Assembly (NCBI GenBank): GCA_013215875.1
Contig: JABSQK010000051.1
Coordinates: 1-32,559, forward strand
Direction of reading: 5' to 3'
Length of the DNA stretch: 32,559 nucleotides
From: Lentisphaeria bacterium
Lineage (GTDB): Bacteria > Verrucomicrobiota > Lentisphaeria > JABSQK01
The notes under the pieces are model-generated. The model was not told the DNA's origin. It worked only from the letters and a program-made list of their open reading frames with translations, and made no database searches. Shown in pieces: positions 1,314-31,969 of this stretch. How positions within the stretch are numbered: position 1 is the first letter of the stretch; each line of letters opens with the position of its first letter. A program made the position numbers and the translations under genes.

Positions 1314-2446
1314 CAGAACAAACAACATTTGCTTTAATCGGTACCGGACGACTGGCGCAGTCACAACATCTGCCGAATTTAATGCGAGCACCGCATGTAA
1401 AATTACAGACAATTTGCGATACAAATGAAGAGCTGCTTGCTGCCATGCATGCCAAGTACCCGGTGCCGCAAGCCACGACCGATTACCGTGAAGTTCTGGC
1501 CGACCCGTCCATTCAAGCCGTAGTCATAGCGACCCGCGAGGACATGCAGGCCAAACTGACGATCGCAGCATTGGAAGCGGGAAAGCATGTTTATGTGGAG
1601 AAGCCACTGGCCAATACCAGTGAGGAATGTCAGGCTGTTGTGGATGCACAAAAACGCAGTGGCAAGCATGTGGCCTTGGGTTTGAACCGGCGTTTTGCGC
1701 CAGCTTACCGCAAGGCTCGCGAAGCAGTCATGGCACATGGCGGCGCTCACAACATTCATTACCGCATCTCTGAAACTGCCTGGCACTGGCATGATCCCAT
1801 GCGAAGCCGTGTCATTACCGAAGTTTGTCATATCTTTGATATTCTGCGCTGGTTCACCGATTCGGAGGTGAGCTCTGTCTACTGCATGGAAGCAAGAGAC
1901 GATGACGAAGCGTTTGCACTTCAGTTTGAGAATGGAGCCATAGCGACAATCATGAGCACAGGTTACAGCAGCACGGATCTGCCCAAAGAGCGTATTGAAA
2001 TAATCAGTGATACTGGGGGTGTCATTGTTGAGGAATTTGCAGAGCTTCGTACTTTTGGTTATTCGGACTTTGACCATGTCTATCGCTTTGCCGGTCATGC
2101 GCATCCGGACCAGGAGTGGACCCCGAAATATCTCTTGGCCCAGTCTGGAGCCGATGCGGTTCATGCTCTGCGTCGTATGGCTTGGGAGTTACAGGAAGAA
2201 GCTAAAGAGAATGTAGAAGATAAGAGCTGCTCCGCCCAGGATGTGCGGGATTATGTCAACACCCGAGTACCGATCTGGAATTACATGGGCGACAAGGGTT
2301 GGCTCTCAGCCGTGGATCATTTTGCTCAGTGCATTCTGGAAGGCCGCACGCCGGAGACGGCCACCGCTGAGGATGCATGGAAAGCCAGCTGCATTGCCCA
2401 TGCTGCAATCCGCAGTCGGGATGAGAAAAACATCGTGAAACTCTAA
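1310..2446 (+). CDS. Gfo/Idh/MocA family NAD(P)-dependent oxidoreductase
   Basis: N-terminal Rossmann motif [11 protein letters not shown], conserved EKPLA motif and ~378 aa length. AAGGAAA Shine-Dalgarno sits 6 nt upstream. Start overlaps the upstream stop (ATGA coupling). Confidence 0.85.
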
Positions 2447-2465
2447 ATCAACAGGACGAAAAATC

Positions 2466-3287
2466 ATGACCACTGTTCAAGTCACTGACACAGAAAAGGG
2501 AGAGATCCCGCAGAAGGGAAAAATCACCCACGGTTTGGTCTATGAGGTGAAAGCGAAGCTCTCAATCAAATTCACTTTGATCGAGCTACTTGTGGTGATT
2601 GCGATCATCGCGATCCTGGCGGCGATGTTGTTGCCTGTTCTCTCTCGGGCTAAAGATACTGCACGCAGCATACATTGTCTCAATAACCAGAGACAAATCG
2701 TCCTGGCAACCTTGATGTACGCTGACGACTGGGGTTCCCTGTTTAATGGTGACATCGTCATCAACACCCCCGGCAATCATCCCGAGGGCGAGAGTGTCAT
2801 GTGGTTCGCATACAACTCCTTCGATATTGGAAGAGACGTGTGGATCTGCCCCTCTCATCCGGACAGACGGCTTCCAGATGCTGAGTCATGGTGGCAGAAC
2901 GCGACACGCAGTTGGCCCCATTACGCACCGAACTTTGGCGGCGCATTAGGTACGATGTCGGTTGGCGATAAGCTGAAAATCGCTGGTTGGTACCACAGGG
3001 AAAACACGGTAAACCCGCTCCCGGCGATACGCTTATCCATGCTGACGAGTCCCGCCAACATTATCGGCTGGGGTGACTCCTTTTCCCGTGACCGTTTATA
3101 TGACGACGGCAATCGCTTCTTTCTCCACTACCGCAATCCCCAATCTTACGGCATGCCATCCGATGTGCACATGGGGAAGGCAAACGTTTCGTTCCTTGAC
3201 GGCCACGCTGGTCAGATCCATGAGTCCCAGTGGCGCGAGACATACAACCCTAATGCAGCAAAAGAATACTGGTCTGTAAAAAAATAG
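2466..3287 (+). CDS. prepilin-type N-terminal cleavage/methylation domain protein with H-X9-DG motif (DUF1559 family)
   Basis: Class-III signal/pilin-like segment [24 protein letters not shown]-terminal H-X9-DG: [12 protein letters not shown]. The probable true start is GTG 2547 (giving [15 protein letters not shown], a typical short basic prepilin leader); ATG 2466 adds a 27-aa extension. Confidence 0.8.
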
Positions 3288-3297
3288 GACTAAAACT

Positions 3298-4149
3298 ATG
3301 ATCACTATTAAAAGTAAAGACATATCACAAGCCCGGCAAGTGAAAGCATCCTTGGATGCGCTGAGTCGGCAGAACATTCATAGAATGTTCGAGAGACTGA
3401 TTAAGAGACTAACTCTACGAGCGTTTACGCTCATAGAACTACTTGTGGTGATTGCGATCATCGCGATTCTGGCATCGATGTTGTTGCCGACGCTCTCTCG
3501 GGCATTAGAAATCGCGCGCAGCACACATTGTCTCAATAACCAGAAACAGATCGTCCTGGCGACGATGATGTACAGTGACGAAAATGGTTCCCTGTTCAAT
3601 TGCGAAATCGTCTTCAATACCCCCGGCAATCATACCGAGGGCGAGAGTGCCATGTGGTTCGCATACAACGCCTTCGATATTGGCAGAGACGTCTGGCTCT
3701 GCCCCTCTCACCCGGACAGAAAGCTTCCAGACTTCGCACCGTGGAGCATGAACGCCACACGCTCGTGGCCCCATTACGGACCGAACATGGGCGGTGAAAT
3801 CGGTGTCGCCTTGCCGGTTGATCAAAAGATGAGAATTGTTGGTTGGTACCACAGGGAAATCACAACACGCCCGGACCCGCTCCCGGCGATACGCTTATCC
3901 ATGCTGTCAGATCCCGCTGCTACCATCGCCTGGGGTGACTCCTTTTCCCGTGACCGTTTATATGACGACGGCAATCGTTTCTTCCTCTACTACCGTGCCC
4001 CTCGACCTTACGGTATGCCGTCTGATGTGCACATGGGGAAGGCAAACGTCTCGTTTCTTGACGGCCACGCAGCTTCGGTCCATGAGAGCGAGTGGAGCGA
4101 GACGTACAACCCTAACGCAGCTAAGGAATACTGGTCTGTAAAAAAATAG
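3298..4149 (+). CDS. prepilin-type N-terminal cleavage/methylation domain protein with H-X9-DG motif (DUF1559 family)
   Basis: [23 protein letters not shown] pilin-like segment and H-X9-DG ([12 protein letters not shown]). About 85% nt identity to the preceding gene over the mature region, indicating tandem duplication. Alternative start ATG 3385 gives [20 protein letters not shown]. Confidence 0.8.
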
Positions 4150-5249: not shown

Positions 5250-7235
5250 ATGACAATACAAAAATATTCTCTTGGCAATCTTGAATTCGATTTCGATGAC
5301 TTGAGCGGCCAGATACTTAAAGTACATGACAGCTCGCTTGATATGACGGTTATAGAATTTGATGCCGGTCATGAACTGGAAATCAATAAGCATGCGCTTC
5401 CTCTGCGACTGAGCGACCAGGACGAATCCAAAAACGCCGATTTTCCCGATCCCGCCTGGCAATGCAATTTGCAAGGCAGCAGCTATAGCAGCGCAGGTGC
5501 CGGTTGGGCATTTAATGTATTTCGGCAGGTGGTTGTTGGGTCAGCCTGCAAGCCGACAGGCAATCATTTGAACGCTCCAAACTGTCTTCATATTCGCTAC
5601 CGTCTTGAGCGAAAAGTAATGGATAAATATGACACCGACGTTCCACTCTTTTCCAATAAACGGCCGATGCAAGTGCCGCTCTGGCTGGATACCATCGGTA
5701 CGCTCTGTGCAAAAACAGACTGGTTCGGAGCGGATACTAAAATGATTGCTGCTCATATGCCAGGGGCGGGTCCGCGTTCACATGTAAGCCTGGAAGAGGG
5801 AGCCCCCGACGAAGTAACTGAACATCTTTGGAATATGTTCCGGCGAACGCATCCCGGCGTGCAGCTTATTCCCGGTGCCATCTACACCCACCCGGATGGC
5901 CGCTGGTTATGGATAACCGCGCAGCGACCAACGGTTGGTATGCATTGGGATTTTAATGCGAGCAGCCAAAAGGCCCAGTTTGAATACCATGCACGCCTGA
6001 CTCCTGCTGACGTTGTTCATACCCCTGAAGTCAGTCTGTATTGGGGAACCGGAGGCGAAGCAGAAATGTTTGCGCGTTTGAATGACGCATTTATTGCATA
6101 TGAAGAACCACCGAAATGGTGGTGGAATACCTGCTGGCATTGGATGAATTGGTGGTGCCATCGGGAAAATGGCATTGATGATATGGCCGATCATGCGGAA
6201 TATTTACATGAGAAACTTGGCTTGACCGGTTTTGGCCTGATGCTTCATGACCTGCGCCCGGGCTCCTGGGATTGTTCGGCTTCCGGCCTGCGCCCCAGTC
6301 CGCATCTTGGTGGCGATGAAGCCATCCGCCGCTTTGGCGAACGGGTGAAATCGTTTGGCGGAAAAATATTTATATGGATGCCTTACCTTGGACTCGGTGA
6401 ACCCAGTCTTGATATTCGACCCGACTGGGTTGTCCGTGGCGAAGACGGGCGTCCCTTTGAAACGTACGGCATTGGTTCATTCGATCTCTACCAGGGACTT
6501 AACTTTGGGCATCCCGAGGTCCAGGACTACTATCTCGAGTGGATCAAACGGTATATAACAGAGTACCAGATTGATGGCATATTTTGGGATTGTGGCGGTA
6601 CGCCTTCGCCGCCTGATATTTCTTCACCTGAGACGCGCTCATTTCAGCGATTTCCCTCAGAGAATATGACAGCGGGTTATCGCTTCATGGAAAAAGTCAT
6701 GTTGGCCGGCCGTTCCTATTCAAAGGATTTCTTTATGTGGCATGAAGCCTTCAATGCAGACCTTCCGGGAATGGGCTATGGCAGCAGCAAGGGCGATGAC
6801 GGCTTTATCGCCAAGCTTAATCGTTATGGTAAAAAGCGCTTAGTGTATCGTTCGAAATCCACGTACGATCTTTACGGTGGATTCCCCAGAATTATTCCAG
6901 AACAGGATTCGGGCTTTGAAAAGCGACCGGTTTCGCTCGAAACGTATAAGCCTGTGATTGAAGATAAGATGAATCAGTGGCTGGTAAACTTTGTGAAAGA
7001 GAATGGTGTGCGTGATGCACAATGGGTTGCGAATGGCGTGTCTTACTGTGCTGGTCATATTGTCACCGATCCCGCCGATCAACCCTATGAAGTAACCATA
7101 CCCCGGTGGATGACTGAAGCCAAAAAACTTGTGAATGTGTTTACTAACGAAAGCATAAAACCTTCAGGCGAAAATGAATCAGGGACAACGTTTATTTTGG
7201 AAGGAAAAGCAGCCTATGCAGTACAGCAGGACTGA
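5250..7235 (+). CDS. hypothetical protein, putative TIM-barrel glycoside-hydrolase-like
   Basis: 661-aa ORF with no signal peptide. Segment GHPEVQDYYLEWIKRYITEYQIDGIFWDCGG resembles glycoside-hydrolase-like (GHL) families; family not assignable by eye. Confidence 0.55.
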   Translation: MTIQKYSLGNLEFDFDDLSGQILKVHDSSLDMTVIEFDAGHELEINKHALPLRLSDQDESKNADFPDPAWQCNLQGSSYSSAGAGWAFNVFRQVVVGSACKPTGNHLNAPNCLHIRYRLERKVMDKYDTDVPLFSNKRPMQVPLWLDTIGTLCAKTDWFGADTKMIAAHMPGAGPRSHVSLEEGAPDEVTEHLWNMFRRTHPGVQLIPGAIYTHPDGRWLWITAQRPTVGMHWDFNASSQKAQFEYHARLTPADVVHTPEVSLYWGTGGEAEMFARLNDAFIAYEEPPKWWWNTCWHWMNWWCHRENGIDDMADHAEYLHEKLGLTGFGLMLHDLRPGSWDCSASGLRPSPHLGGDEAIRRFGERVKSFGGKIFIWMPYLGLGEPSLDIRPDWVVRGEDGRPFETYGIGSFDLYQGLNFGHPEVQDYYLEWIKRYITEYQIDGIFWDCGGTPSPPDISSPETRSFQRFPSENMTAGYRFMEKVMLAGRSYSKDFFMWHEAFNADLPGMGYGSSKGDDGFIAKLNRYGKKRLVYRSKSTYDLYGGFPRIIPEQDSGFEKRPVSLETYKPVIEDKMNQWLVNFVKENGVRDAQWVANGVSYCAGHIVTDPADQPYEVTIPRWMTEAKKLVNVFTNESIKPSGENESGTTFILEGKAAYAVQQD

Positions 7236-7442
7236 CACGTTATGACAAAAAATAAACAAACGTTGAATGAACTAAGCAGTCTGTCTGGAAAGATTGTGCT
7301 GGTGACAGGATGGCCGACCGCTGGTGACAGGAGAAGAGGCCTCGCAGTCCCTCAAAGTCGCTGAGTTGGCGATAGGTCGGATTAAAAATAAATGTTAACT
7401 TATCAAAAATATTTTTTAATAAAAATTAATCAGGAGTAATAT

Positions 7443-8408
7443 ATGAAAATTGGAATCGTTGGTTGCGGTGGAATCGCTCGCGCCCATGTTAATGCCTACC
7501 AGGCAAACAACGCAGAACTCGTCGCGTTTTATGACAGCTTTGCTGAATCTGCAAAATCATTTAGTGAGGAGTTAGGCGGACAAGCTTATGACTCAATAGA
7601 CGATATGATCGCAAGCGGAATCGATGCGGTTAGCATCTGTACGCCGCCAGTCGCCCACACCGATAACGTCCTGCCATTTCTCGATGCCGGCATTCCTGTT
7701 CTATGTGAAAAACCCATCGAGCTGAATGGTGAACGTGCTGCCGCTCTCACAGAAAAAGTGAACGCATCGAATACACTCTTCATGACGGCATTCTGCCATC
7801 GTTTTCACCCACCTGTCATCAAGCTAAAAGAAATTATTGATTCCGGTGAATTAGGTGATCCAATTCTCTTACGAAACTTCTTCGGCGGCTATATGAAACT
7901 GGAAGGCGATCATCGTATCAAACCTGAAATATCGGGCGGCGGTTGCATGATTGACCATAGCTGTCATGCTGTTGATCTCTTTCGCTTTCTGGTTGGTGAA
8001 CCGACCACAGTGTCAGCTGTCACTGCTGATGTTCAAAATATTCCAATTGAAGACCTGTCTGCCTTCAGTCTTAAAATCGGTAACAGCATCATTGGTAGTT
8101 TTAACAGTACTTATTCCATTCCTTTCTGCCGCAATACAGTGGAGTGGATGGGGTCCAAAGGCTCTGCTGTAATCAACTATTCCAAGTCGGTTGAAGGGGA
8201 ACTTCTCGTCGCGAAAGATGATCAGGGCTGGACAGCCGTCGACTGCGCTGATATGCCAGAACGCTTCACAGGCGAAATTACCTACTTCCTCGACTGCGTT
8301 AAATCCGGAACCACACCGTCTATAACTGCCAACGACGGTCTGGCTGCTAATCGCATTGTCGATGCACTCTACCTTTCGGAGGCAGAAAACCGGATCGTTA
8401 AGGTCTGA
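7443..8408 (+). CDS. Gfo/Idh/MocA family NAD(P)-dependent oxidoreductase
   Basis: MKIGIVGCGGIARAHV Rossmann N-terminus and EKPIEL motif. Strong Shine-Dalgarno cAGGAGtaatat before the ATG; AT-rich upstream region. Confidence 0.85.
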   Translation: MKIGIVGCGGIARAHVNAYQANNAELVAFYDSFAESAKSFSEELGGQAYDSIDDMIASGIDAVSICTPPVAHTDNVLPFLDAGIPVLCEKPIELNGERAAALTEKVNASNTLFMTAFCHRFHPPVIKLKEIIDSGELGDPILLRNFFGGYMKLEGDHRIKPEISGGGCMIDHSCHAVDLFRFLVGEPTTVSAVTADVQNIPIEDLSAFSLKIGNSIIGSFNSTYSIPFCRNTVEWMGSKGSAVINYSKSVEGELLVAKDDQGWTAVDCADMPERFTGEITYFLDCVKSGTTPSITANDGLAANRIVDALYLSEAENRIVKV

Positions 8409-13664: not shown

Positions 13665-14432
13665 ATGAAAGAGAGACTATTTACCATCATTTTTTGTTTA
13701 TTGGCCTTAGGAGTTTCAGCTGACACGGACAAAAAACCTAAGCCTAGAGCAATACTACTTTCAAGCATTATTAAGGATCTGGCTGAACTTGAAATAAAAA
13801 ATGTCGAGATTAATGCCACGACCCTTCCTGAGCTTATGAAGCAATTGGGGAACGGGGTGAAACCATTCGGGGAAAAACATCCCGATTTTGCGGTCATCAT
13901 CGATAGCTCCGGGCCGAAATTTAAAGTGGTCTTCAAAGCCGATCGAATCCATTTCATTGACCTGTTGAATATAGTATGTCATCAAGCGAAGCTGATGTGG
14001 TCCATTGGTCCCGGTGGCCTTGTCATTCGGCCGCAAGTTGTATACAATGATCGAATAATTACAGAAGACGATGAGCGATCACTGCCAGATGAAGGCGATG
14101 AATTATCACTGCCAGATGAAGGCGATGAAATAGTGAAAGAAGAAAAAAATAAGCCAAAGCAAAAAGCATTTGGCAAGCGATCTGCAAAAGATCCTATCGT
14201 TGTGAATGTTTTCGAAAAAGGGAAAATGTTGGTAATGGGTAAGGCTATAAGTGAAAAACAATTGTTAACAATGCTCAAAAAGGCGAAAAAAGAATATTCA
14301 AAAGTATCAGTCATAATTCGCGGGGATAAAAAAGCAAATTGGAAAAATATAGCCACTGTTATGAATGCTTGTTCAGGAGCAGGCATTGACAGAGTTAGCT
14401 CTACAGTTGAAGTTGATGCAGAAGATAAATAA
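13665..14432 (+). CDS. secreted/periplasmic protein with ExbD/TolR-like C-terminal domain
   Basis: N-terminal signal/anchor MKERLFTIIFCLLALGVSA. C-terminal ~70 aa (VSVIIRGDKKANWKNIATVMNACSGAGIDRVS) matches the ExbD/TolR periplasmic domain pattern. Internal tandem SLPDEGDE(L/I) repeat. GGGAG Shine-Dalgarno upstream. Confidence 0.6.
   Translation: MKERLFTIIFCLLALGVSADTDKKPKPRAILLSSIIKDLAELEIKNVEINATTLPELMKQLGNGVKPFGEKHPDFAVIIDSSGPKFKVVFKADRIHFIDLLNIVCHQAKLMWSIGPGGLVIRPQVVYNDRIITEDDERSLPDEGDELSLPDEGDEIVKEEKNKPKQKAFGKRSAKDPIVVNVFEKGKMLVMGKAISEKQLLTMLKKAKKEYSKVSVIIRGDKKANWKNIATVMNACSGAGIDRVSSTVEVDAEDK
14079..14132 (+). repeat. 27-bp tandem repeat x2 (26/27 identical), in frame, encoding SLPDEGDEL/SLPDEGDEI
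   Basis: tcactgccagatgaaggcgatgaatta followed by tcactgccagatgaaggcgatgaaata. Confidence 0.8.
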
Positions 14433-19322: not shown

Positions 19323-19784
19323 TCAGCCCTGCGACTTTTTCTCTTCAAGATAGTCGAGCACACAATCCATAAGATGTGGCTTGCTTAAGGCGTCTTCCAG
19401 GCTGACAAATTCTGCCCAGATGATTTCGCGCATATCAATTTGCAGGTCTGGGGCTTCATCGAGGTACAGTTCATAGAGGCAGGTGATATTGCGTGTCGTC
19501 TTTGAGGGGATTTCTTTGATAAATTTGAGTTGCTCAGTCGTTGCAGTGATGTGCGCTTCTTCGTACAGTTCACGAACGGCAGCATCGATATAGCTCTCGT
19601 TGCGGTCGACCATACCCCCCGGAAAGCCAAAATCGCGCTTATAAGAGGTCCTTAACAGCAGGATTTTTCCATCATACCAAACACCGACGAATGTCCCTCT
19701 GCTGGAAATTCGCAGGATTCTCCAGGCAATGATGGCTCCGATATATAAAACTTTGAAAACACAGCGATAGAGAAAATTGAGCAT
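19323..19784 (-). CDS. NUDIX hydrolase
   Basis: NUDIX box GGMVDRNESYIDAAVRELYEEAHI (Gx5Ex7REUxEExGU). Confidence 0.8.
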   Translation of the reverse strand: MLNFLYRCVFKVLYIGAIIAWRILRISSRGTFVGVWYDGKILLLRTSYKRDFGFPGGMVDRNESYIDAAVRELYEEAHITATTEQLKFIKEIPSKTTRNITCLYELYLDEAPDLQIDMREIIWAEFVSLEDALSKPHLMDCVLDYLEEKKSQG

Positions 19785-19877: not shown

Positions 19878-20237
19878 ATGACTTTTCTAGTATGTTCCAA
19901 GTCTGTCAAACAACGGGAGATAGTAAGTATAATGCTCAGAGAGCTCTGCGAGATCGCCATTTCAAAGCCCATGCTGATTTACACAATTCCAGCGGGGCTC
20001 AGCATCATCTATTGGATCGTCACCATTTGCGGAATATTTAGTTTTGACGGGGTTGTGGATGGGGCGGTTGACGGGCTTGTAGATGGGGCGGTAGACGGCG
20101 TGGTTGATGGCCTTGTTGATGGCCTTGTTGATGGTGCGGTAGACGGGCTTGTTGATGGCGCAGTGGATGGTGTGGTTGATGGGGCAATAGATGGGGCAAT
20201 AGATGGGGGCGCTGATTTGATTGCAGCGCTGATTTGA
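19878..20237 (+). CDS. small membrane protein with 14 tandem D-G-[AVLG]-[VIA] tetrapeptide repeats; probable N-terminal module of a split NfeD gene
   Basis: One hydrophobic helix (LSIIYWIVTICGIFSF), then (DGVV/DGAV/DGLV/DGAI)x14. Third codon positions vary synonymously, which supports real coding. Stop TGA lies inside the second copy of a 17-bp tandem duplication. Confidence 0.5.
   Translation: MTFLVCSKSVKQREIVSIMLRELCEIAISKPMLIYTIPAGLSIIYWIVTICGIFSFDGVVDGAVDGLVDGAVDGVVDGLVDGLVDGAVDGLVDGAVDGVVDGAIDGAIDGGADLIAALI
20046..20213 (+). repeat. 14 tandem 12-bp units GAY-GGN-NNN-NNN, coding, frame-preserving
   Basis: Direct reading of the sequence. Minus-strand ORFs over this region are repeat artefacts. 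Confidence 0.85.
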
Positions 20238-20244
20238 TTGCAGC
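20211..20244 (+). repeat. perfect 17-bp tandem duplication GCTGATTTGATTGCAGC x2
   Basis: The two copies are identical and adjacent. Because 17 is not a multiple of 3, the duplication shifts frame between ORF 19878-20237 and ORF 20234-20755. Confidence 0.9.
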
Positions 20245-20755
20245 ACCTCCTGGTGCGTCTGTGATGTATAAGGTGTGCAACTTAATAAACCTGGGCATGG
20301 TGCCGGCAACCATTGTATTAACCCTGCTTGTTTGGAAAATGTGGCTCATAGCCCTTTTTGGCACTTATTACTTTGGTGCAGCACTGGGAGCCAGCCTGCC
20401 CGCAATCGGCGTCTTTCTGATAATCTTCTTTATCAGCCTGATCATCGCATTCATCCTTACCATCGCAACAACATGGCCAATCAAAAAACTTTTTCAAAAA
20501 GGAGTGACTTATCATGGTCGGGAGCACTTGATAGGTGGCGAGTGTGTAATAACTTCTAGTGGTGTAGATAACTCATATGGCAGAGCAGAAGTCGCTATTG
20601 GCGGTTCACCAATTATTATAGATGTGGTGTCAGATGAAACTTTTAAGAAAGAAGACATGGCAAGAATCGTTCTGTACAATAAAGTGAAAAATACATATAC
20701 AATTGAAACTATAAATAAGGAGAGTGGTAATGGCAATATTTTATCGGAAAATTGA
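20234..20755 (+). CDS. NfeD family membrane protein (TM segments plus C-terminal OB-fold)
   Basis: Two or three TM helices, then an OB-fold region GECVITSSGVDNSYGRAEVAIGGSPIIIDVVSDETF typical of short NfeD/YuaF-like proteins. No Shine-Dalgarno before any candidate start (TTG 20234, ATG 20264, ATG 20297); CCTCC lies upstream. Overlaps the flotillin start. Confidence 0.7.
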   Translation: MIAAPPGASVMYKVCNLINLGMVPATIVLTLLVWKMWLIALFGTYYFGAALGASLPAIGVFLIIFFISLIIAFILTIATTWPIKKLFQKGVTYHGREHLIGGECVITSSGVDNSYGRAEVAIGGSPIIIDVVSDETFKKEDMARIVLYNKVKNTYTIETINKESGNGNILSEN

Positions 20756-22754
20756 GCAAGGTAAGGCCTTGATCATTAGTGGCTTGGGTAAACCGAAAGT
20801 TAAATTTAGTGGAGCGATTGTCAATCCATTTCTGGATAAAGTCGAAGTTATGGATATCTCCGTGAAGACAATTGAGATTGACCGTCGTGGGAAAAATGGT
20901 TTGATCTGTAAGGATATGATTCGCGCGGATATCATTGTCTCCTTTTATATACGTGTGAATGCTACCGAAGAAGACGTCAAGCAAGTTGCAAGTATGGTGG
21001 GTTGTGAACGTGCATCGGATATTAATACTCTGGAAACACTCTTCTCGGCAAAATTCTCCGAAGCTTTAAAAACTGCCGGAATTCGAATGGATTTTGTTGA
21101 GCTTTTTGATAACCGGGATCAGTTCAAAGAAGAAATCATCAAGGTCATCGGTTCAGATCTAAATGGTTATTCTCTGGAAGATGCTGCCATCGATTATATC
21201 GAACAAACACCGCTTGATGCGCTTGATGAAGACAACATGCAGGACTCCGAAGGTATTCGCAAGATCACCGAGATTACCTCAAAGAAGCACATCCTTACCA
21301 ATGAATTTGAAAAGGACGAAGAAAAAGAAATCACCCGTAAAAATGTTGAAACCAAAGAGACGATTTACGAATTGGAACGCCAGCAGGCAGAAGCCGAAGC
21401 CAAACAGTTACGGGAAATTGCCACTGCCCAGGCGCGCGAAGAATCACTGACTGCTCAGGTCCAGGCCGAAGAAAGGTTAAAAGCTGAGACAGCCGAAAAG
21501 AAAACCGAAGAAGAACTGGGCATAGTCGAAGAAAATAAACGCCGTGCCATAGAGCTTGCTGCAAAAGGCCGCGAACGCGAGATTGGTGTGGAATCGGAAC
21601 GTGTCGAACAGGCTCGTGAGCTGCAAGCTACAGAACGCGAACGCCTGGTTACTATCGAACAATGGCGCAAAGATAAGGACGTGGAAGTCGAGAAAAAAGC
21701 GATTCAAGAAGTGATTCGCGAACGTGTCGCACTCGAACGCTCCGTGGCAGAAGAGCAGGAAAAGATTAAAGACGTTGAAAAAATTGCGGATGCCGAACGT
21801 ACCCGCCAAGCGGATGTAATCATTGCCGAAAAAGATGCTCAGGAATTATTGGTAAGAGAAACTGTAGAGGCTGAAGCAAAAGAAATTGCCGCCAAGTTTA
21901 TTGCCAATGAAACGGTGATACTTGCTGAAGCAGATAAAAAGCAGGCCGAACATGAAGCCGAAGCTGCCATGGTGCGAGCCGCTGCAAAAATCAAAGTGGA
22001 AGCTGCCGACGGTATGGCAAAAGTGGAAGTGGAAAAAGCCGAAGCCGAAGCCATTGAGCTAAAAGGTAGAGCTGAAGCTATTGCCTTGCGTGAAATAAAA
22101 ACTGCCGAAGCGGATGGTACACTAGCAAATGGTACAGCAGAGGCAAAAGCGAAAACAGCAATGTATAACAGCGATGCCGAGGGTACCACAAAAATCGGAA
22201 CCGCAGATGCACATGCAATGGCTGCTAAGTTCGAAGCAGATGCAAATGGAATCAACCAAAAAGCGGATGCCATGAAAAACTTCGACGGTGTTGGTCGTGA
22301 ACATGAAGAATTCAAACTCGAACTGAACCTGGAAGAACGCATTAAGATTGCTGAGATCGATAAGGATCGTCAGGTTGCGGAATATCAGTCTGAGATCATG
22401 GGCGAAGCAATGCGCAGTGCCGATATCGATATCGTTGGTGGCGATGGCGTGTTCCTCGACAACTTCTTTAAGTCAATCACCCTGGCAAAATCAGTTGATG
22501 CCTTTGTGGATGAAAGTGCAGTTGCTAAAGGCTTCATCGACGGTGAAAACAAAATTGGCGAACAGCTTAAAAACCTGATTGGTGCAGAGGGTCTAAAAGC
22601 CGCAGATATTAAAGACTTGACCGTCTCTGCTCTGCTGGCAAAACTGGCACTTGAAGGAAAAAAGGAAAGCACCCGGAAAGTGGCAACAAGCTTGCAAGAG
22701 CATGTCAGCGCAATGGGTTTACAAGATCTAATGGCAATGTACCTCGCTAAGTAG
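20730..22754 (+). CDS. flotillin-like SPFH/Band-7 domain protein with long coiled-coil
   Basis: N-terminal SPFH domain (AIFYRKIEQGKALIISGLGKPKVKF...), then ~300 aa of E/A/K-rich coiled-coil. AAGGAGA Shine-Dalgarno 6 nt before ATG 20730. Classic NfeD-flotillin operon partner. Confidence 0.85.
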   Translation: MAIFYRKIEQGKALIISGLGKPKVKFSGAIVNPFLDKVEVMDISVKTIEIDRRGKNGLICKDMIRADIIVSFYIRVNATEEDVKQVASMVGCERASDINTLETLFSAKFSEALKTAGIRMDFVELFDNRDQFKEEIIKVIGSDLNGYSLEDAAIDYIEQTPLDALDEDNMQDSEGIRKITEITSKKHILTNEFEKDEEKEITRKNVETKETIYELERQQAEAEAKQLREIATAQAREESLTAQVQAEERLKAETAEKKTEEELGIVEENKRRAIELAAKGREREIGVESERVEQARELQATERERLVTIEQWRKDKDVEVEKKAIQEVIRERVALERSVAEEQEKIKDVEKIADAERTRQADVIIAEKDAQELLVRETVEAEAKEIAAKFIANETVILAEADKKQAEHEAEAAMVRAAAKIKVEAADGMAKVEVEKAEAEAIELKGRAEAIALREIKTAEADGTLANGTAEAKAKTAMYNSDAEGTTKIGTADAHAMAAKFEADANGINQKADAMKNFDGVGREHEEFKLELNLEERIKIAEIDKDRQVAEYQSEIMGEAMRSADIDIVGGDGVFLDNFFKSITLAKSVDAFVDESAVAKGFIDGENKIGEQLKNLIGAEGLKAADIKDLTVSALLAKLALEGKKESTRKVATSLQEHVSAMGLQDLMAMYLAK

Positions 22755-22911: not shown

Positions 22912-24972
22912 TCATCGTCTGATATCGTAATAGAGCACAGCATCGTCGTCGTCTTTCAGTGAATTTGAAAGAAAGTCTTTTGTGAGTTGTTTATTTCTAT
23001 CTACTGGTTCGAGCACGAGTTGGACAGTTTTTCCAATCGTCAGTTTAGCAATTGGCAGAATCTTTTTTTCCTTCATCACCCAGTGTAGCACGCGAATCTT
23101 TTTACCTTTGTATTTTCCTGAATTTACTTTGTCGACACTGTATTCAAATACGGCGAGCTCCTGGAAATAGGGTTTGATTTCATGATAGGGTTGAATGGCT
23201 GATTTTGCCAGAAGTTTGGCGCTTATCTTGAGCAGGGGAACTTTCTTGCGCTTGCTGATAGATGACTTGAAGTTTTTATAATTTCGCAGGGCAGTTTTGC
23301 CGGTCATAAATTTACTATTAACAACGACACCTTCTATGAGACCATCCCAATTATTCTTGCGACCGGGACTGCTGCCGAATACAAGTTCTGTTCCCTTCCA
23401 GCTGCCGAAACCGCCTTTGAGGGAATTAATCATTTTGGCAGTACGGCCGTTTTTAAAGCAAATCAACGTACCTGATTTGTATGTGATGATGATGTGGTAC
23501 CGTTTTGCAGTCAGTTTAAACAGTGGAATCCAGGCCTTTTCTTTCCCGGCAGTTGCCATGGAAAAGTAGAGCAGATTCTTTTTTTGTGCGAGGATAAAAT
23601 CCTGGCTGCCTTGTTTGTTGGTATTGGACATGATCTCAGCGTAGTCTTCGCCTTTTAGCTTGAGAGCGGCGGGCGTGATAAATAATTCGAGTGAGAATTC
23701 GCCGCTCTTTTTGCATGCCGATAATATATGAGCACCGGCACCTTTAGTGAAGAATGAGCCACCACGTGCATCCATGACATAGTTGTGATTTAGGTCTGCC
23801 AGGTCGCGCAGTGTAAGACCGAAGCCTTCGATTTTGATGCCCTGTTTATTGTAGACCAGTGCATCGTTTAATTTTCCGGTGGGCCAAAGAAAAAGTGCCC
23901 TGGGACTGACGGCACGATACCATTTACTTTTTTTAATGAGCTTAACCCGTTTCTTTTTAACTGGCCTTTTGGATGATGGTTTTGCTTTGCTAATTTTTTT
24001 AGAAGCCGCTGATTCAATCCAGGCATGAGCGGAGGTATCAAAAAATTGGCCTTTGCTAACTTGGACCCATTTTTCGACCTTATTGAATTCTTTGTCGAAA
24101 CGACCCAGGAAAACATTGCAGCCTTTTGTATATTTAAGCGTGTTTGGAAAGGGTCCGACAACAGTCATGAACTGCAAATGTGTAGACCACTTGGGATTCC
24201 AGTATTCACCGCCGCCATTGGGCGTGACAGTCATGGAACGGGCGCCACCGCCACCGGGATTATACATGGTGATCGTTCTATGGTTGCCGACCATGTGAAA
24301 AAATCGATAACTGTTGTCGGGAGCAATATAGGCGTTGCAACCGCTGCCATACGCTGTCCATTTCAAGGCTTTGGTCTCAGCAACGCCAACACGGGGCCAG
24401 GCAAACTCGCCGCCCATGCGGGTTCCGTCTTCTGAAGTGCTGATCCGCAGGGTGATTAGTTTTGATGTTCCTTTTGGCCAGACCACTTCTTCTTTTTTTG
24501 GATTGTCAATCTTGATCCGGATCATTGACCCACCGTATCCATTCCGCATCACATACAACCATTCTTTTTTATCCTTGGGATCTACAGAGGTGCATAGGCC
24601 ATATGAGCCGGAGGTAACAACCTTGTCGTTCTTACCATTCCAGTCGACAACATGAACCTGGTCCCCATCTCCACTATAAATTACACGCTCTCCGTCACGG
24701 GTTAAAAAAGGTACGGAAGCACGTATGGGTCCTTTGACCAAGACACGCTCTTTACCATCTTTGGTATCAAAACACATGATACTGTAGACGGAGTGATGCC
24801 CATCCGGCACCCCTTTACCCTCTACTACAGATCTCAGCCAGACGACTTTCGTATGTGCCCCTTCCGTCATTTCAAGGATTGCTTTTGTAAGGTCGTCTGC
24901 AGCGTTGGCGGAGCCCAAAGATATCAGGGCGAGTAAACTAATAACAAGAAATTGATCTGTCCAAGTCTTCAC
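22912..24972 (-). CDS. secreted protein, N-terminal beta-propeller-like region plus C-terminal LamG/concanavalin-like domain
   Basis: Signal peptide MKTWTDQFLVISLLALISLGSANA. Lys-rich linker (KKKRVKLIKKSK). Segment ...NNWDGLIEGVVVNS resembles LamG-fold proteins. Confidence 0.55.
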   Translation of the reverse strand: MKTWTDQFLVISLLALISLGSANAADDLTKAILEMTEGAHTKVVWLRSVVEGKGVPDGHHSVYSIMCFDTKDGKERVLVKGPIRASVPFLTRDGERVIYSGDGDQVHVVDWNGKNDKVVTSGSYGLCTSVDPKDKKEWLYVMRNGYGGSMIRIKIDNPKKEEVVWPKGTSKLITLRISTSEDGTRMGGEFAWPRVGVAETKALKWTAYGSGCNAYIAPDNSYRFFHMVGNHRTITMYNPGGGGARSMTVTPNGGGEYWNPKWSTHLQFMTVVGPFPNTLKYTKGCNVFLGRFDKEFNKVEKWVQVSKGQFFDTSAHAWIESAASKKISKAKPSSKRPVKKKRVKLIKKSKWYRAVSPRALFLWPTGKLNDALVYNKQGIKIEGFGLTLRDLADLNHNYVMDARGGSFFTKGAGAHILSACKKSGEFSLELFITPAALKLKGEDYAEIMSNTNKQGSQDFILAQKKNLLYFSMATAGKEKAWIPLFKLTAKRYHIIITYKSGTLICFKNGRTAKMINSLKGGFGSWKGTELVFGSSPGRKNNWDGLIEGVVVNSKFMTGKTALRNYKNFKSSISKRKKVPLLKISAKLLAKSAIQPYHEIKPYFQELAVFEYSVDKVNSGKYKGKKIRVLHWVMKEKKILPIAKLTIGKTVQLVLEPVDRNKQLTKDFLSNSLKDDDDAVLYYDIRR

Positions 24973-26514: not shown

Positions 26515-26712
26515 TTCCATAACTCCTAGAATTTAAATTTATCGGTTTACTAAAGAGCTGAACATTACGAGGATTTGGGTGTTTTTCAATAGTGAGGGTT
26601 TGAATAATTGAGAATTGGCCGGGCGGTCTTGAATAGAATGCATGAAAGAGCTTGAAAAAAGCATGTTTTGGCAATAAATTACTAGTATCATTTGAATCAA
26701 AGGAATCGAATT

Positions 26713-27591
26713 ATGAAACAACGACTATTTTTGCTTGCTTTACTTTACAGTTTTTCCGGTTTTGCATACATGGAAACTACCCGCCTGATTAAAATAAATG
26801 AAAATGGCAGTGGGTTTATACATTTAAGAGTTCTGGTGAATTCGGAAGTTGTTGGAGAAGGGAAACCGATCTTTAACCAAAAACAACTTAGAGCAGCAGC
26901 AGCTCAGCTTGGTTCCGGTTGCACGCTGGTTGCCGCCAAGGAAGTAAAACGCGGCAAAGGCAAATGGTATGGCTTTATTGCAAAATACTCATTTTCAAAT
27001 ATTCGCAAAATCACCATTCAAGCGGATGAGATCATCGATATGTCAAAACTAGGTGGAGATGAAGAGGGCGAAGAGGCTGAAGAAGAGGAAGAATTTTATG
27101 ATGAAGAGGAAGAGGACGAGGATGAAGGAGATGAGGACGATGAAGATTTCGCTTTAGAGGGCATCAGCTGGACATTCCATTTCACTCAAGGCGAAGTCAA
27201 CATATTAAAAATCAATCCTAATGGGTTTGTCATCGAACAAGGCGGAGAAGATGACTTTGAAGAAGATGACGAAGACGACGAAGAACTTGGAGAAGATGAC
27301 GATACAGAGGACTTTCTAGATAAACAGCGTGGTCATCGAAATGTCATCTACATACAAATGCAGAGTGAAAAAGTCGATATTGCAAAAAGAGAATTTATTG
27401 CTTCTGATGAGCACCAGAATACCATCATACTTTACGATGAGCAATGGGATACGCTTGCGACAAATGAAAAAGCCCGTGCTATTCTTCAAACATCCGGCAA
27501 CAGAGCCGGCTTAAAGGGCCTTCAAGGCTTTCGTGGTATTTCCGAAAAAATCGAGATTACTTTCGGTGGGGAAGAGGAAGACGCCGAATAA
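26713..27591 (+). CDS. secreted highly acidic low-complexity protein
   Basis: Signal peptide MKQRLFLLALLYSFSGFA. Two poly-Asp/Glu tracts (EEEGEEAEEEEEFYDEEEEDEDEGDEDDEDF and EDDFEEDDEDDEELGEDDDTEDF). AAAGGAA Shine-Dalgarno before ATG 26713; track start TTG 26692. Confidence 0.6.
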   Translation: MKQRLFLLALLYSFSGFAYMETTRLIKINENGSGFIHLRVLVNSEVVGEGKPIFNQKQLRAAAAQLGSGCTLVAAKEVKRGKGKWYGFIAKYSFSNIRKITIQADEIIDMSKLGGDEEGEEAEEEEEFYDEEEEDEDEGDEDDEDFALEGISWTFHFTQGEVNILKINPNGFVIEQGGEDDFEEDDEDDEELGEDDDTEDFLDKQRGHRNVIYIQMQSEKVDIAKREFIASDEHQNTIILYDEQWDTLATNEKARAILQTSGNRAGLKGLQGFRGISEKIEITFGGEEEDAE

Positions 27592-27593
27592 TA

Positions 27594-28715
27594 ATGTCTG
27601 CCAGACTTATTTACGCAGACAGTGAATCATCTCCCGATATGCTTTATGCATGCGGAATTTTTGTACCCGATTCCTTTTTGTGGATGGACCTGGATGGCAA
27701 ATCTGTCGTGGTTGTCAGTGCGCTTGAATACGCCAGAGTAAAAAAATTCCTTGCCAAAAAAGCCGAAGTTATCAGTTTTTCAGAGTTAAAAGAACGGTAT
27801 GATTTAAAGACTTTAAGCCCTGCAGATCAAATTGCCGCACTTGCCAAAAAGCACTTTAAACGACGCTCATTTAAAGTTCCATATAATTTTCCTGCCGGCT
27901 TAATGGATGAGCTGGCAAAAAAGCACAAAATAAAACTGCAGCCGGTAAAAGGCTATTTTTTCCCCGAGCGCGAATTTAAAACAGCCAAAGAAATTCGCCA
28001 TCTTAGTGACGGCGTGAAACTTGCCGAAGCGGGTATGTATGTCGCTTTCGACATTCTCAAGAAAGCAAAAATTCGCGGGACTAAATTAATCTGGAATAAA
28101 AAGGAACTCACTGCGGATATATTGCGCGGCGAGATCGACGCGCACATTTCACGGCTTGGCGGCCTGCCCGCACATACAATCGTTGCTCCTGGAAAAGAGG
28201 GCGCAGATCCGCACAATGTCGGACACGGTCTCATTCGCCCACACCAGCCAATCATCATCGATATTTTTCCCCGTGTTATGAACACAGGCTATTTTGGTGA
28301 CTTAACCCGTACGGTGGTAAAAGGGACTGCCAATGATATTACCTGGAAAGCATTCAATGCAGTAAAGGATGCGCGCGACTCGGCGATTGCCCAATTAAAA
28401 GACGGTGTGCTGTCGAAGACCATACATCAAGGCGTGGTTAGCTGTCTAGAGTCCCATGGCTTTGAGACGGATTCCAAAGTGGCAAAACCCTATGGCTTTT
28501 TTCACAGTACGGGACACGGGCTTGGCCTGGAAATACATGAGCAACCCCGACTTAGCAATGTGAATGTGCGCATGCGAAAAGGCCATGTGGTGACCGTCGA
28601 ACCCGGACTCTATTACCCAAAATGGGGTGGCTTGCGCCTCGAAGATGTGCTGGTCGTTACGAAGCATGGCTGCCGCAACTTAACCACAGTCGATACCTTT
28701 TTGGAAATAAAATGA
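27594..28715 (+). CDS. M24 family Xaa-Pro aminopeptidase (aminopeptidase P/prolidase-like)
   Basis: Creatinase/prolidase N-terminal domain plus M24 C-terminal domain with HGLGLEIHEQP. Confidence 0.85.
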   Translation: MSARLIYADSESSPDMLYACGIFVPDSFLWMDLDGKSVVVVSALEYARVKKFLAKKAEVISFSELKERYDLKTLSPADQIAALAKKHFKRRSFKVPYNFPAGLMDELAKKHKIKLQPVKGYFFPEREFKTAKEIRHLSDGVKLAEAGMYVAFDILKKAKIRGTKLIWNKKELTADILRGEIDAHISRLGGLPAHTIVAPGKEGADPHNVGHGLIRPHQPIIIDIFPRVMNTGYFGDLTRTVVKGTANDITWKAFNAVKDARDSAIAQLKDGVLSKTIHQGVVSCLESHGFETDSKVAKPYGFFHSTGHGLGLEIHEQPRLSNVNVRMRKGHVVTVEPGLYYPKWGGLRLEDVLVVTKHGCRNLTTVDTFLEIK

Positions 28716-29488
28716 CCACCCCGGTTTGTCTGACGATTGCAGGTTCTGACAGTAGTGGCGGTGCGGGCATACAGGCGGATCTGCGAACATTTAATTACTT
28801 TAAGTGCTATGGGACCTCGGTTATTACGGCTCTCACAGCACAAATCCCCAGAAAACTTAGCGCCATTGAAGCGGTTTCAGAAACTCTGGTTGCGCAGCAG
28901 CTCTCCGCAGTGTCATCCTTGAATATTTCAGCGGCAAAGTGCGGCATGCTATTAACAAAGCCGATCATTCTATGCATCGTAGAAGCAGTGAAAAATGCCG
29001 ACTATCCTTTAATCGTGGATCCTGTTATGATTGCCTCTTCCGGCAAGCGACTGCTCGAAGAAAATGCTGTTGATGCACTGGTGAATGATTTGTTGCCCCA
29101 GGCAAAACTGATTACCCCGAATATTCCGGAAGCAGAAATAATTGTAGGAAAAACACTGGCATCCTTAAATGAGATCGAAGCAGCAGCTTTGGCATATTCA
29201 GAAACAGGCCCGGCAATCTTGATAAAAGGCGGCCATGCGACCGATAAGGATGCTGTCGATGTATTAGCGGTAAAGGGCGAGCTGACCCATTTTGTGGCAG
29301 AGCGTTTGGAGATTGCTGAAAGCCATGGCACTGGCTGCACCCTTTCTGCAGCCATTACTGCGAACCTTGCACTTGGGCACTCGCTTCCTGAAAGCATACA
29401 AATCGCCAAAGACTTTGTTTATAAGAGTCTGCAAAACATACAGCAGATTGGTGATGAAACATTTGCTTTGTATCCGCCGGAAAAGTGA
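28712..29488 (+). CDS. thiD: hydroxymethylpyrimidine/phosphomethylpyrimidine kinase (ThiD/PdxK family)
   Basis: VCLTIAGSDSSGGAGIQADL signature. ATG 28712 overlaps the upstream TGA (ATGA coupling); the track's 28622 start is an out-of-context extension. Confidence 0.85.
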   Translation: MTTPVCLTIAGSDSSGGAGIQADLRTFNYFKCYGTSVITALTAQIPRKLSAIEAVSETLVAQQLSAVSSLNISAAKCGMLLTKPIILCIVEAVKNADYPLIVDPVMIASSGKRLLEENAVDALVNDLLPQAKLITPNIPEAEIIVGKTLASLNEIEAAALAYSETGPAILIKGGHATDKDAVDVLAVKGELTHFVAERLEIAESHGTGCTLSAAITANLALGHSLPESIQIAKDFVYKSLQNIQQIGDETFALYPPEK

Positions 29489-31483: not shown

Positions 31484-31969
31484 ATGGAATTATTTAATAT
31501 GTTTGTAGCTCAGGAAGCTGAGAGTGGTGACGGTGGAATAGCAGGTATGATAGCAGGTGCGATGGCAGCATTAGGAGCAGCTCTGGCAATACCAGCAATA
31601 TTGATGATTGTTATAATTATCGCTATGTGGAAAATATTTGTAAAAGCAGGGCGACCTGGCTGGGAATCAATTATTCCCATTTACAACACATACATATTGA
31701 CTTGCGAAATAGCAAAAAAACCCATTCTGTTTTTCATTCTCACGTTAGTACCCTGTGTGAATATTATTGCGGCGATCATCATCTTAATAGAAGTTGCCAA
31801 GAAATTTGGTAAGAGCACAGGCTTTGGTATAGGAATGGTAATTGTTCCATTCATATGTATACCAATGCTTGGTTTTGGCTCGGCTGCATACGAAGGCGGC
31901 GATGGCGGCGGCGAAGTAGAAGCTGCTGAAGAACCTGCTGAAGAAGCAGAAGCTGACGAAGAAGAGTAG
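31484..31969 (+). CDS. small polytopic membrane protein (DUF5684-like) with acidic Gly/Glu/Ala-rich C-terminal tail
   Basis: Conserved WKIFVKAGRPGWESIIPIYNTY block and about 3 TM helices. AAGGAGAGGG Shine-Dalgarno. Paralog of gene 32038-32442. Confidence 0.6.
   Translation: MELFNMFVAQEAESGDGGIAGMIAGAMAALGAALAIPAILMIVIIIAMWKIFVKAGRPGWESIIPIYNTYILTCEIAKKPILFFILTLVPCVNIIAAIIILIEVAKKFGKSTGFGIGMVIVPFICIPMLGFGSAAYEGGDGGGEVEAAEEPAEEAEADEEE

Follow-up and report, generated by a model that had tools for sequence, protein, structure and literature searches.

A length-variable array of acidic GX3 tetrads between the first two transmembrane helices of YqiJ-like proteins, and its probably decaying copy in a Lentisphaeria bacterium

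A stretch of 32,559 nucleotides from a Lentisphaeria bacterium (contig JABSQK010000051.1 of assembly GCA_013215875.1, hereafter the window) carries 14 tandem 12-bp units at 20046-20213 of the forward strand, which encode the tetrapeptide Asp-Gly-x-Val again and again. The array lies in the loop between the first and second transmembrane (TM) helices, TM1 and TM2, of a yqiJ/nfeD-like gene directly upstream of a flotillin gene, and the yqiJ-like gene is split by a 17-bp duplication just after the array. Comparison with homologues shows that the array is the length-variable hallmark (0-20 units) of a large, unannotated YqiJ-like subfamily whose members are labelled hypothetical proteins. Our explanation as a whole, to which we give a probability of about 0.7, is that the tetrad loop is a family-wide feature facing the cytoplasm, that it forms an associating helix of the GX3 kind (glycine at every fourth position), that it evolves unit by unit, and that the copy in the window has suffered a recent lesion.

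The forward frame across 20046-20213 translates as DGVV, DGAV, DGLV, DGAV, DGVV, DGLV, DGLV, DGAV, DGLV, DGAV, DGVV, DGAI, DGAI and DGGA, identical to the units listed in a first-pass annotation of this DNA. Within the 12-bp unit, bases 1, 2, 4, 5 and 11 are constant across units 1-13 (a count that leaves out the degenerate last unit, unit 14). The third bases vary synonymously in the Asp codons (GAT 10, GAC 4), in the Gly codons (GGG 8, GGC 4, GGT 2) and in the 11 Val codons at tetrad position 4 (GTT 6, GTA 3, GTG 2). The remaining codons at position 4 are two ATA (Ile) and one GCT (Ala), and the third codon of the tetrad alternates among Ala, Val and Leu. Tandem Repeats Finder (TRF) reported periods of 12, 24 and 48 bp with scores of 69-162. 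The DNA of unit 6 is identical to that of unit 7, and unit 12 to unit 13, which therefore points to recent single-unit duplications. Elsewhere in the window, the longest in-phase xGxx run in any of the six frames has 3 tetrads. After 200 triplet shuffles, the longest xGxx run was at most 5 and the longest DGxx run at most 3. The length of the array is far above chance expectation.

Across the tract, the frame of the array is the only one of the three forward frames that stays open. On the minus strand all three are open, because the repeat has no stop codons. Two minus-strand open reading frames (ORFs) of 115 and 108 aa span the array (window 19962-20364), and one of these frames reads a Pro-Ser-Thr-rich repeat; we rejected them as genes, as they are open merely for the reason just given. 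The 12-bp tract is protein-coding and selected at the protein level. The synonymous third positions had already suggested this at first pass, and a check of the homologues found the DG columns conserved, the opposite of what a non-coding satellite would leave.

The host protein belongs, as a remote member, to the YqiJ/YuaF ('NfeD2') group and has three TM helices and a C-terminal NfeD-type OB fold. An hhalign comparison of a 15-sequence family profile with E. coli YqiJ gave 92.7% probability (E 4.3e-7, 124 columns), and the alignment spans the L-N-x-G-x-x-P motif, TM2, TM3 and the C-terminal domain, all in the 3' part of the gene. A fold search reached NfeD domains for the C-terminal part, which is a soluble, five-stranded OB fold. 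Three long hydrophobic helices (residues 12-41, 120-149 and 152-185) precede this domain, as expected of NfeD2 proteins, and the gene stands directly upstream of, and overlaps, the flotillin gene (ORF start 20730), as expected of NfeD2 operons. The 56-residue array inserted between TM1 and TM2 is unusual for the NfeD2 layout. With the match of the neighbouring flotillin to E. coli YqiK, these results bear out the earlier view of an NfeD-like host beside a flotillin. Curated models scarcely detect this kinship. The window protein matches none of the Pfam models NfeD PF01957, YqiJ_N PF21001 and DUF1449. Scans with Pfam, NCBIfam and PADLOC of the protein repaired in silico, as described below, and of its two halves gave no NfeD, YqiJ or defence-system match. 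Among 15 family members, YqiJ_N matches 6 weakly (best E 6.4e-5) and NfeD matches 1 (E 1.5e-3). A search of PDB sequences with the profile of alignment A1 returned a single match, a low-complexity (NGHM)n stretch in a pyridoxal kinase entry, which was rejected as spurious.

The known pairs of this group share the order of the locus. In E. coli YqiJ-YqiK and B. subtilis YuaF-YuaG(FloT), both NfeD2-SPFH2 pairs, the gene of a small membrane protein is followed by that of a flotillin, according to passages of PMC2636767 and PMC11237479. Passages of the former propose YqiJ and YuaF as divergent NfeD homologues that partner flotillin-type SPFH2 proteins, and passages of the latter describe an operon of a TM-band-7-flotillin protein, a YqiJ/YuaF-like 3-TM protein and a novel AAA+ ATPase. 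YqiJ also has hydrophobic helices followed by a C-terminal OB-fold domain, and its L-N-x-G-x-x-P motif stands before TM2. It differs in the TM1-TM2 loop, which in E. coli YqiJ has about 25 residues without tetrad periodicity. Physical interaction or co-oligomerisation of the two partners has been shown for S. aureus FloA-NfeD (PMC11222466) and for E. coli QmcA-YbbJ (Tan 2024, as related in a passage of PMC13086221).

An exhaustive profile search of 1.84 billion representative proteins found 3788 family proteins at E<=1e-3 and 960 at E<=1e-30. The TM1-TM2 loop was parsed in 147 of the best matches. These loops have a median length of 74 residues and a median net charge of -14, the extreme being -29. 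At least 5 in-phase xGxx tetrads were counted in 79 of the 147 loops, at least 10 in 22 and at least 14 in 6, with a maximum of 20; the 14 units of the window are therefore at the long end. Over 1187 tetrad units, position 1 is D in 40%, E in 36%, K in 5% and H in 4%, position 3 is A in 57%, V in 12% and L in 10%, and position 4 is A in 36%, L in 20% and V in 15%. The DGxV of the window is thus a Val-rich form of a (D/E)-G-A-(A/L/V) consensus. In alignment A1 the array columns G56 and G60 are invariant, and in alignment A3 the Gly columns are kept at 79-95%. The first impression, that the array was peculiar to one NfeD-type gene, has to be given up, because the array is common in a large YqiJ-like subfamily that is already in the databases as hypothetical proteins. 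No Pfam model for the array was found in the window protein or in family members, none of the papers searched contains both NfeD and GxxxG, and the YqiJ passages of PMC2636767 and PMC11237479 are silent on the array. The idea of an undescribed module holds to this extent, while the motif itself is of the known GX3/GxxxG kind (PMC2674601, PMC4523923).

Three observations count against the array as a family-wide feature. The sample of the top 150 matches is biased to array carriers because the search profile included the array. In 80 further loci (L006-L085), which were collected with flotillin as the anchor and are free of this bias, tetrad arrays were found in Victivallales, Myxococcota/Polyangiaceae and Acidobacteriota. 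Actinobacterial orthologues of this sample have very short acidic loops, almost none, with at most 6 tetrads in a run, and some orthologues from the Planctomycetes-Verrucomicrobia-Chlamydiae (PVC) group have period-2 DxDx stretches in place of tetrads. What NfeD and flotillin do at the core thus does not depend on the tetrads.

The loops of individual loci were also inspected. In three genes (L006 5235-5888, L037 3564-4244 and L042 5231-5887) the TM1-TM2 loop is period-2 acidic (e.g. DFDVDGDMDADADAPD, DLDLDGDVGIDLDGDVDVDADIDV), and in the Polyangiaceae orthologues L014 and L031 it is short and rich in His and Asp. Acidity is common to all these loops, and their periodicity varies with the clade.

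Relatives at 45-87% identity differ by insertions and deletions that fall chiefly within the array. Most of these come in steps of 4 residues: 4+4 between P0002 and the L010 orthologue, 4 between L044 and L060, and 16+28 between P0004 and L034. One compared pair has an irregular 15-residue gap. The arrays of homologues also have a 12-bp DNA period, with about 67-70% identity between units. Their higher-order DNA periods are 24/36, 36/72/84 and 24/48 bp, and since these differ, they point to separate duplication histories and not to a conserved structural super-repeat. The aligned pairs indicate that the array evolves mostly via gain and loss of 4-residue units, and they lend support to the in-frame change of copy number by slippage that had been foreseen from the 12-bp period. 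We propose that slippage or unequal exchange among the 12-bp DNA units may adjust the length of the array.

The features of the disrupted gene and its flotillin neighbour are listed below. Helices were taken from AlphaFold2 (AF2) models, with the predicted local distance difference test (pLDDT) as the measure of confidence.

19915-19919, forward strand: Shine-Dalgarno-like GGGAG, 12 nt 5' of the likely start ATG 19932 (from the sequence)
19932-20237, forward strand: 5' fragment with a 13-residue N-tail, TM1, the tetrad array and a premature TGA; aligns with residues 1-98 of full-length homologues
19971-20039, forward strand: TM helix 1, MLIYTIPAGLSIIYWIVTICGIF, with the family-invariant Tyr-Trp pair; AF2 helix at residues 12-35/41, block-mean pLDDT about 90 or higher
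20046-20213, forward strand: tetrad array, 14 x 12-bp units D-G-[A/V/L]-V, in a TM1-TM2 loop that is probably cytoplasmic (translation, TRF, shuffles, family conservation)
20209-20242, forward strand: perfect 17-bp tandem duplication, GCGCTGATTTGATTGCA twice; TRF period 17, 2.1 copies, 100% match
20234-20755, forward strand: 3' fragment of 173 aa with the L-N-x-G-x-V-P motif, TM2, TM3 and the OB fold; GenBank hypothetical protein HRT89_03655
20306-20503, forward strand: helical hairpin of TM2 (20306-20395) and TM3 (20402-20503), TM3 entering the basic stretch PIKKLFQKG; AF2 helices at residues 120-149 and 152-185
20540-20710, forward strand: C-terminal five-stranded beta domain, NfeD OB fold
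20730-22754, forward strand: YqiK-type flotillin (SPFH/Band 7) gene with a strong AAGGAG upstream and no N-terminal TM anchor; Band_7 PF01145

The ORF with the array was called mechanically from 19878 (119 aa), and its likely start is 19932 (101 aa). The homologue alignment begins at the Met of ATG 19932 (MLRELCEIAISKP... against MIDFLKFIISGP... of P0003), not at the upstream ATG 19878. The array directly follows TM1, as had been noted before. In the family W28 of TM1 is invariant and Y27 is kept in 98%, and the block-mean pLDDT of TM2 and TM3 is mostly >90 in the AF2 model from the deep alignment. The stop of the array ORF (TGA 20235-20237) comes 8 codons past the array. The two copies of the 17-mer occupy 20209-20225 and 20226-20242, and this TGA is inside the second copy. 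The duplication, 12 nt past the array, shifts the frame and leaves the 5' ORF and the 173-aa ORF, the last 26 nt of which overlap the flotillin start. GenBank annotation covers the 3' fragment only (HRT89_03655, which is P0001, from a Lentisphaeria metagenome-assembled genome (MAG)), and a record of the frameshift in the annotation was not found. The first-pass reading of this ORF listed the array units correctly and left the stop inside the duplication unstated and the frameshift unweighed.

When one copy of the 17-mer was deleted in silico, both ORFs joined in frame into a protein of 268 aa from M19 (287 aa from 19878). Alignments with full-length homologues (229-312 aa) run end to end and take in about 95% of the repaired protein, which indicates that the ancestral gene was a single ORF. 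All these homologues have the array between TM1 and the LNxGxVP motif. We infer that the frameshift inactivated the gene recently, in a lineage where the module is being remodelled, because a flotillin without TM anchor and the loss of the yqiJ-like gene in a sister Lentisphaeria MAG fit real decay. The end of the gene is also peculiar. At window 20711-20755 the yqiJ-like ORF reaches into the flotillin gene, and its C-terminal tail INKESGNGNILSEN is absent from the closest intact relative, P0003. The tail could be the sign of a deletion that removed the former stop codon and the spacer between the two genes, together with the 5' end of the flotillin gene, which would have coded for the TM helix.

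The flotillin matches Band_7 PF01145 with 31.2 bits (cutoff 23.6) and is 30% identical to E. coli YqiK over 420 residues (E 2e-38), aligned from YqiK residue 27. Its SPFH/Band 7 domain is followed by a long Glu/Ala-rich coiled coil, as in YqiK-type flotillins. It differs from YqiK in having no N-terminal TM helix: it starts with MAIFYRK, which corresponds to residue 44 of the L086 flotillin, and an in-frame stop lies 5 codons upstream. Among the other flotillins checked in related loci, only that of L008 does not begin with a hydrophobic extension of 21 residues or more.

The order of a small membrane protein followed by a flotillin was found in most of 84 further loci (L002-L005, L086 and most of L006-L085). 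In many of them there is a three-gene order of small membrane protein, flotillin of about 700 aa and a protein of 1600-1800 aa. In two loci with precomputed calls, within L002-L005, the giant protein has the domains DUF3686, DUF7902 and AAA. It is presumably the 'novel AAA+ ATPase' of which passages of PMC11237479 speak. The term DUF3686 occurs in none of the papers searched. The gene of the giant protein (1600-1870 aa) was located 3' of flotillin in L002 (9056-12804), L005 (9290-12933), L008 (8049-13271), L010 (5523-10871) and most of L011-L085, and it is absent downstream in the window and in L086. In its place downstream of the window's flotillin there is a gene on the minus strand (22912-24972) for a likely secreted Laminin_G_3 protein.

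Two loci are closest to the window. In L086, which holds P0003, the flotillin (2014-4134) is 61% identical to that of the window and has a 43-residue N-terminal extension with a TM helix. The yqiJ-like gene is intact there (250 aa), and the order is a divergent NUDIX gene, the yqiJ-like gene and the flotillin, without the giant ATPase. The divergent NUDIX hydrolase gene is also present in the window (19323-19784, minus strand; 396-1100 in L086; 39% identity), and this shared neighbour indicates local synteny between the two MAGs. In L008, a Lentisphaeria MAG, the flotillin (5890-7992) is 60% identical to that of the window and anchor-less, with a hydrophilic, Pro/Lys-rich N-terminus; this locus has no yqiJ-like gene and has kept the giant ATPase. 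Both anchor-less flotillins, those of the window and L008, thus go with a broken or missing yqiJ-like gene.

Two further checks bear on whether the lesion is recent and real. A metagenome scan for the junction with a gap of 0-17 nt found neither an intact nor a duplicated allele. At 44 conserved columns the window protein departs at 18 (family median 5), which makes it the most divergent member, but about 8 of these departures are common to P0002 or P0003 and so do not speak for decay in the window.

The strongest alternative is that the duplication arose during sequencing or assembly, or belongs to a minority allele, and that the organism makes an intact protein of 268 aa. Both halves are otherwise stop-free and align end to end with homologues, the lesion adjoins a repetitive tract, where errors are likelier, and the sequence is known from one MAG assembly only. 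In our judgement, however, a perfect 17-bp tandem duplication is typical of replication slippage and not of short-read assembly error. The other window ORFs that were checked are intact, with no further split gene among them, and the adjoining flotillin is itself atypical, while the sister lineage is without a yqiJ-like gene. We therefore consider an artefact unlikely, though it keeps some weight. The overlapping ORFs 27594-28715 and 28622-29488 were also considered as a broken gene and rejected, as they are two complete genes, an M24 peptidase and ThiD.

It is much harder to believe that the split is functional, with a TM1-array polypeptide and a TM2-TM3-OB polypeptide assembling, or with the duplication acting as a reversible on/off switch. 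The downstream TTG start overlaps the upstream TGA stop (TTGA), which is compatible with translational coupling, and short tandem duplications are generally able to revert by slippage. Yet this TTG has no preceding Shine-Dalgarno sequence, none of about 150 representatives and none of the upstream genes viewed in related loci is split at this place, and the 17-bp duplication is a single event and not a hypermutable tract. No slippery heptamer for programmed frameshifting was seen across the duplication, where the sequence was viewed by eye only. A phase-variable, simple-sequence contingency locus was rejected, since the 12-bp unit keeps the frame and the 17-bp duplication, a one-off event, does not belong to the periodic tract. 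A scan for promoters and terminators around the operon found fewer sites than shuffled controls.

The sidedness of the array can be estimated from the charges around the helices. Across the family, basic residues (K+R) average 0.2 in the N-tail. The mean is 1.4 for the 8 residues that precede TM2 and 3.5 for the 20 that follow TM3. The OB domains of NfeD proteins and SPFH cages of this type are on the cytoplasmic side (PMC11222466; PMC13086221). On these grounds the N-terminus would be outside, and the array would be on the cytoplasmic face, the same side as the OB domain and the flotillin.

In two AF2 runs the array was modelled as a single continuous helix (residues 46-88/91). Pro and Asn each make up about 0.02% of 4056 array residues. 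Where Lys occupies position 1, Glu is found at i+/-4 in 84 of about 106 cases, and i/i+4 Glu-Lys is the classic spacing of helix salt bridges. Gly is kept, and positions 3-4 are hydrophobic, among proteins less than 50% identical. The near absence of Pro and Asn, the retained Gly and hydrophobic positions 3-4, and the Lys-Glu pairing favour an ordered helix over a disordered linker. We believe that the array may form a long, acidic, proline-free GX3 (glycine-zipper-like) alpha-helix. In the flotillin-NfeD ring, the arrays of adjacent YqiJ-like subunits would then pack together, or against flotillin, under the membrane.

This helix model agrees in motif with a few known systems. Gly occupies every fourth position here over 14 units, and over 0-20 units across the family. 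The GxxxG repeats of FliH/YscL, with m=0-12 units, have been described as rare and proposed as helix-helix interfaces (PMC2674601). They share with the array a Gly at each fourth residue in contiguous units, a copy number that varies among orthologues with a proposed growth by one 4-residue unit, and a soluble, not transmembrane, repeat; the FliH/YscL repeats are predicted to be helical, as the array is, at low confidence, in the AF2 models. They differ in being Glu/Gln/Lys/Ala/Tyr-rich, whereas the array is acidic at position 1 and hydrophobic at 3-4; in addition, array runs reach 20 units, above the FliH maximum, and the array host is an integral membrane protein. What a long soluble GX3 array does is best documented by experiment for the deca-GX3 of Yae1/Lto1, a 40-residue array of ten GX3 units, in which glycine mutations abolish formation of the Yae1-Lto1 complex (PMC4523923). 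Yae1 and Lto1 differ in being eukaryotic cytosolic adaptors with a fixed ten units that are non-acidic.

The Gly-zipper_OmpA model (PF13436) in the DUF6745 proteins P0017 and P0019 covers near-identical tetrads, [D/R/S]-G/A-A-V, in 20 or more units. These proteins differ in belonging to another host family without flotillin context and in alternating Asp and Arg/Ser at position 1, and the YqiJ-like arrays do not reach the PF13436 threshold. Arrays of [D/R/S/E]-G/A-A-V with 20-40 units were seen in three unrelated proteins, P0015, P0017 and P0019, two of them with DUF6745; Pfam scores P0017 and P0019 as Gly-zipper_OmpA. This suggests that the same kind of tetrad array arose independently in another family.

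Several points tell against the helix model and its association. The array has a low pLDDT, which was about 40-50 in the run with 15 sequences and about 53-69 in that with 129. Val, Gly and Asp have low helix propensity, the DGxV of the window is Val-rich, and Asp-Gly is a classic turn pair. On a helix of 3.6 residues per turn, a period of 4.0 residues drifts by 40 degrees with each unit, and the stripe would stay continuous only if the helix were underwound or formed a tight right-handed supercoil. Array matches to the curated models Yae1_N, TrAA12 and FliH are all below threshold: the FliH NCBIfam model gave 17 bits (cutoff 192) and Yae1_N PF09811 gave 20.3 bits (gathering cutoff 27.5), which speaks against homology to FliH or to Yae1/Lto1. 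As far as sequence comparison tells, the resemblance to these proteins is at the level of the motif only. The self-association of GX3 helices is the weakest step, as it is argued by analogy with unrelated proteins only.

A bolder version can be imagined, although we think it rather improbable. The array would be a new structural element of bacterial flotillin microdomains and, at up to 20 units, the longest natural soluble GX3 zipper. Each NfeD-like subunit would contribute one copy, and dozens of them would be packed or bundled beneath the membrane inside the cage. For the Gly and Asp stripes to run without a break, the helix would have to be unusual, either underwound to about 4.0 residues per turn or supercoiled tightly to the right. 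This polyanionic, length-tunable lining might set the geometry of the cage or sequester cations or polyamines. For comparison, QmcA-YbbJ forms a ring of 26 SPFH:NfeD heterodimers (PDB 8z5g; Tan 2024, as related in a passage of PMC13086221). This E. coli cage differs in that QmcA is of the stomatin type (SPFH1), not a flotillin, and YbbJ has no tetrad array.

Among other accounts of the array, the best is a polyanionic loop that would chelate or buffer cations (Ca2+/Mg2+, transition metals, polyamines) at the membrane surface under the flotillin cage; metal binding had been named in the first-pass annotation. The carboxylates are regularly spaced, and the net loop charge has the median of -14 and reaches the -29 given above. 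At least 4 His occur in 27 of the 147 loops, and His replaces Asp/Glu at position 1 in, for example, P0004 and P0122. The short His/Asp-rich loops of the Polyangiaceae orthologues and the DAHLDHYD of the E. coli YqiJ loop also agree with it, and passages of PMC11237479 link related PspA/flotillin operons to polyamine enzymes. On the other hand, inspection found neither the RTX motif GGxGxDxUx nor the EF-hand motif DxDxDG, the period is 4 and not 9, and where a third acidic position would fall there is A/V/L. Moreover, Lys is tolerated at position 1 and paired with Glu, which suits helix stabilisation better than chelation. As the sole explanation, cation binding is possible but unlikely; it is compatible with the helix, and both could hold. 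An RTX or EF-hand Ca2+-binding repeat in the strict sense was rejected because the defining consensus motifs were not found.

We doubt still more that the array is a disordered acidic spacer ('entropic bristle'), in which length and charge matter and the 4-residue period comes merely from DNA slippage. The low AF2 confidence, the extreme variation in length, the clades without an array and the rapid turnover of units would all be expected of such a spacer. It would not be expected to keep Gly at every fourth position and hydrophobic residues at 3-4 at less than 50% protein identity, with DNA units about 67-70% identical. Pro, Asn and Ser, typical residues of disordered linkers, are nearly absent, and about half of the residues are hydrophobic.

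A beta-solenoid stalk, which the first-pass annotation had considered for the Asp-Gly units, or a beta-roll is very improbable. The Val/Gly/Asp-rich composition, the turn-forming Asp-Gly and the weak 24- and 48-bp super-periods by TRF gave this idea its appeal. Against it, the array is helical in both AF2 runs, the super-periods vary among homologues, so that no coil length is conserved, the family consensus (D/E)-G-A-(A/L) is Ala/Glu-rich and favours helix, and the indels are single tetrads and not whole coils. Finally, that the tract is a non-coding satellite with the ORF as a by-product, as the three open opposite-strand frames might suggest, is refuted for practical purposes, because the homologue alignment keeps the array: it is conserved as protein in hundreds of homologues with diverged DNA, its Asp and Gly codon changes are synonymous only, and it stands at a fixed site in a conserved domain architecture.

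Other repeats were seen elsewhere in the window. Short GAA/GAG/GAC-rich tandem repeats with periods of 6-21 bp, at 27060-27284 in ORF 26692-27591 and at 31891-31965 in ORF 31484-31969, would give the products low-complexity stretches rich in Glu and Asp. ORF 26692-27591 has no Pfam match. A 27-bp tandem repeat (14064-14129, 2.4 copies, 89% match) lies in the ExbD/TolR-domain ORF 13665-14432, upstream of the ExbD domain.

The gene pair, the operon and long GX3 arrays as a motif are known already. Pfam does not capture the array itself, which is acidic, varies in length and lies between TM1 and TM2 in a large subfamily of YqiJ-like proteins. For annotation, this means that a whole family and its array are without a Pfam model and its members are called hypothetical. 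Very long soluble GxxxG arrays had been thought rare (PMC2674601), and the subfamily would join FliH/YscL as a second large family of prokaryotes that has them. The yqiJ-like gene copy in the window is probably decaying or defunct, and the finding is therefore of limited physiological importance for this organism. Current ideas on the role of NfeD-type partners include promoting oligomerisation and stabilising clients (PMC11222466, PMC13086221). For the family, arrays of 0-20 units on the face that would meet flotillin offer a natural variant series for testing the part that the partner plays in cage assembly.

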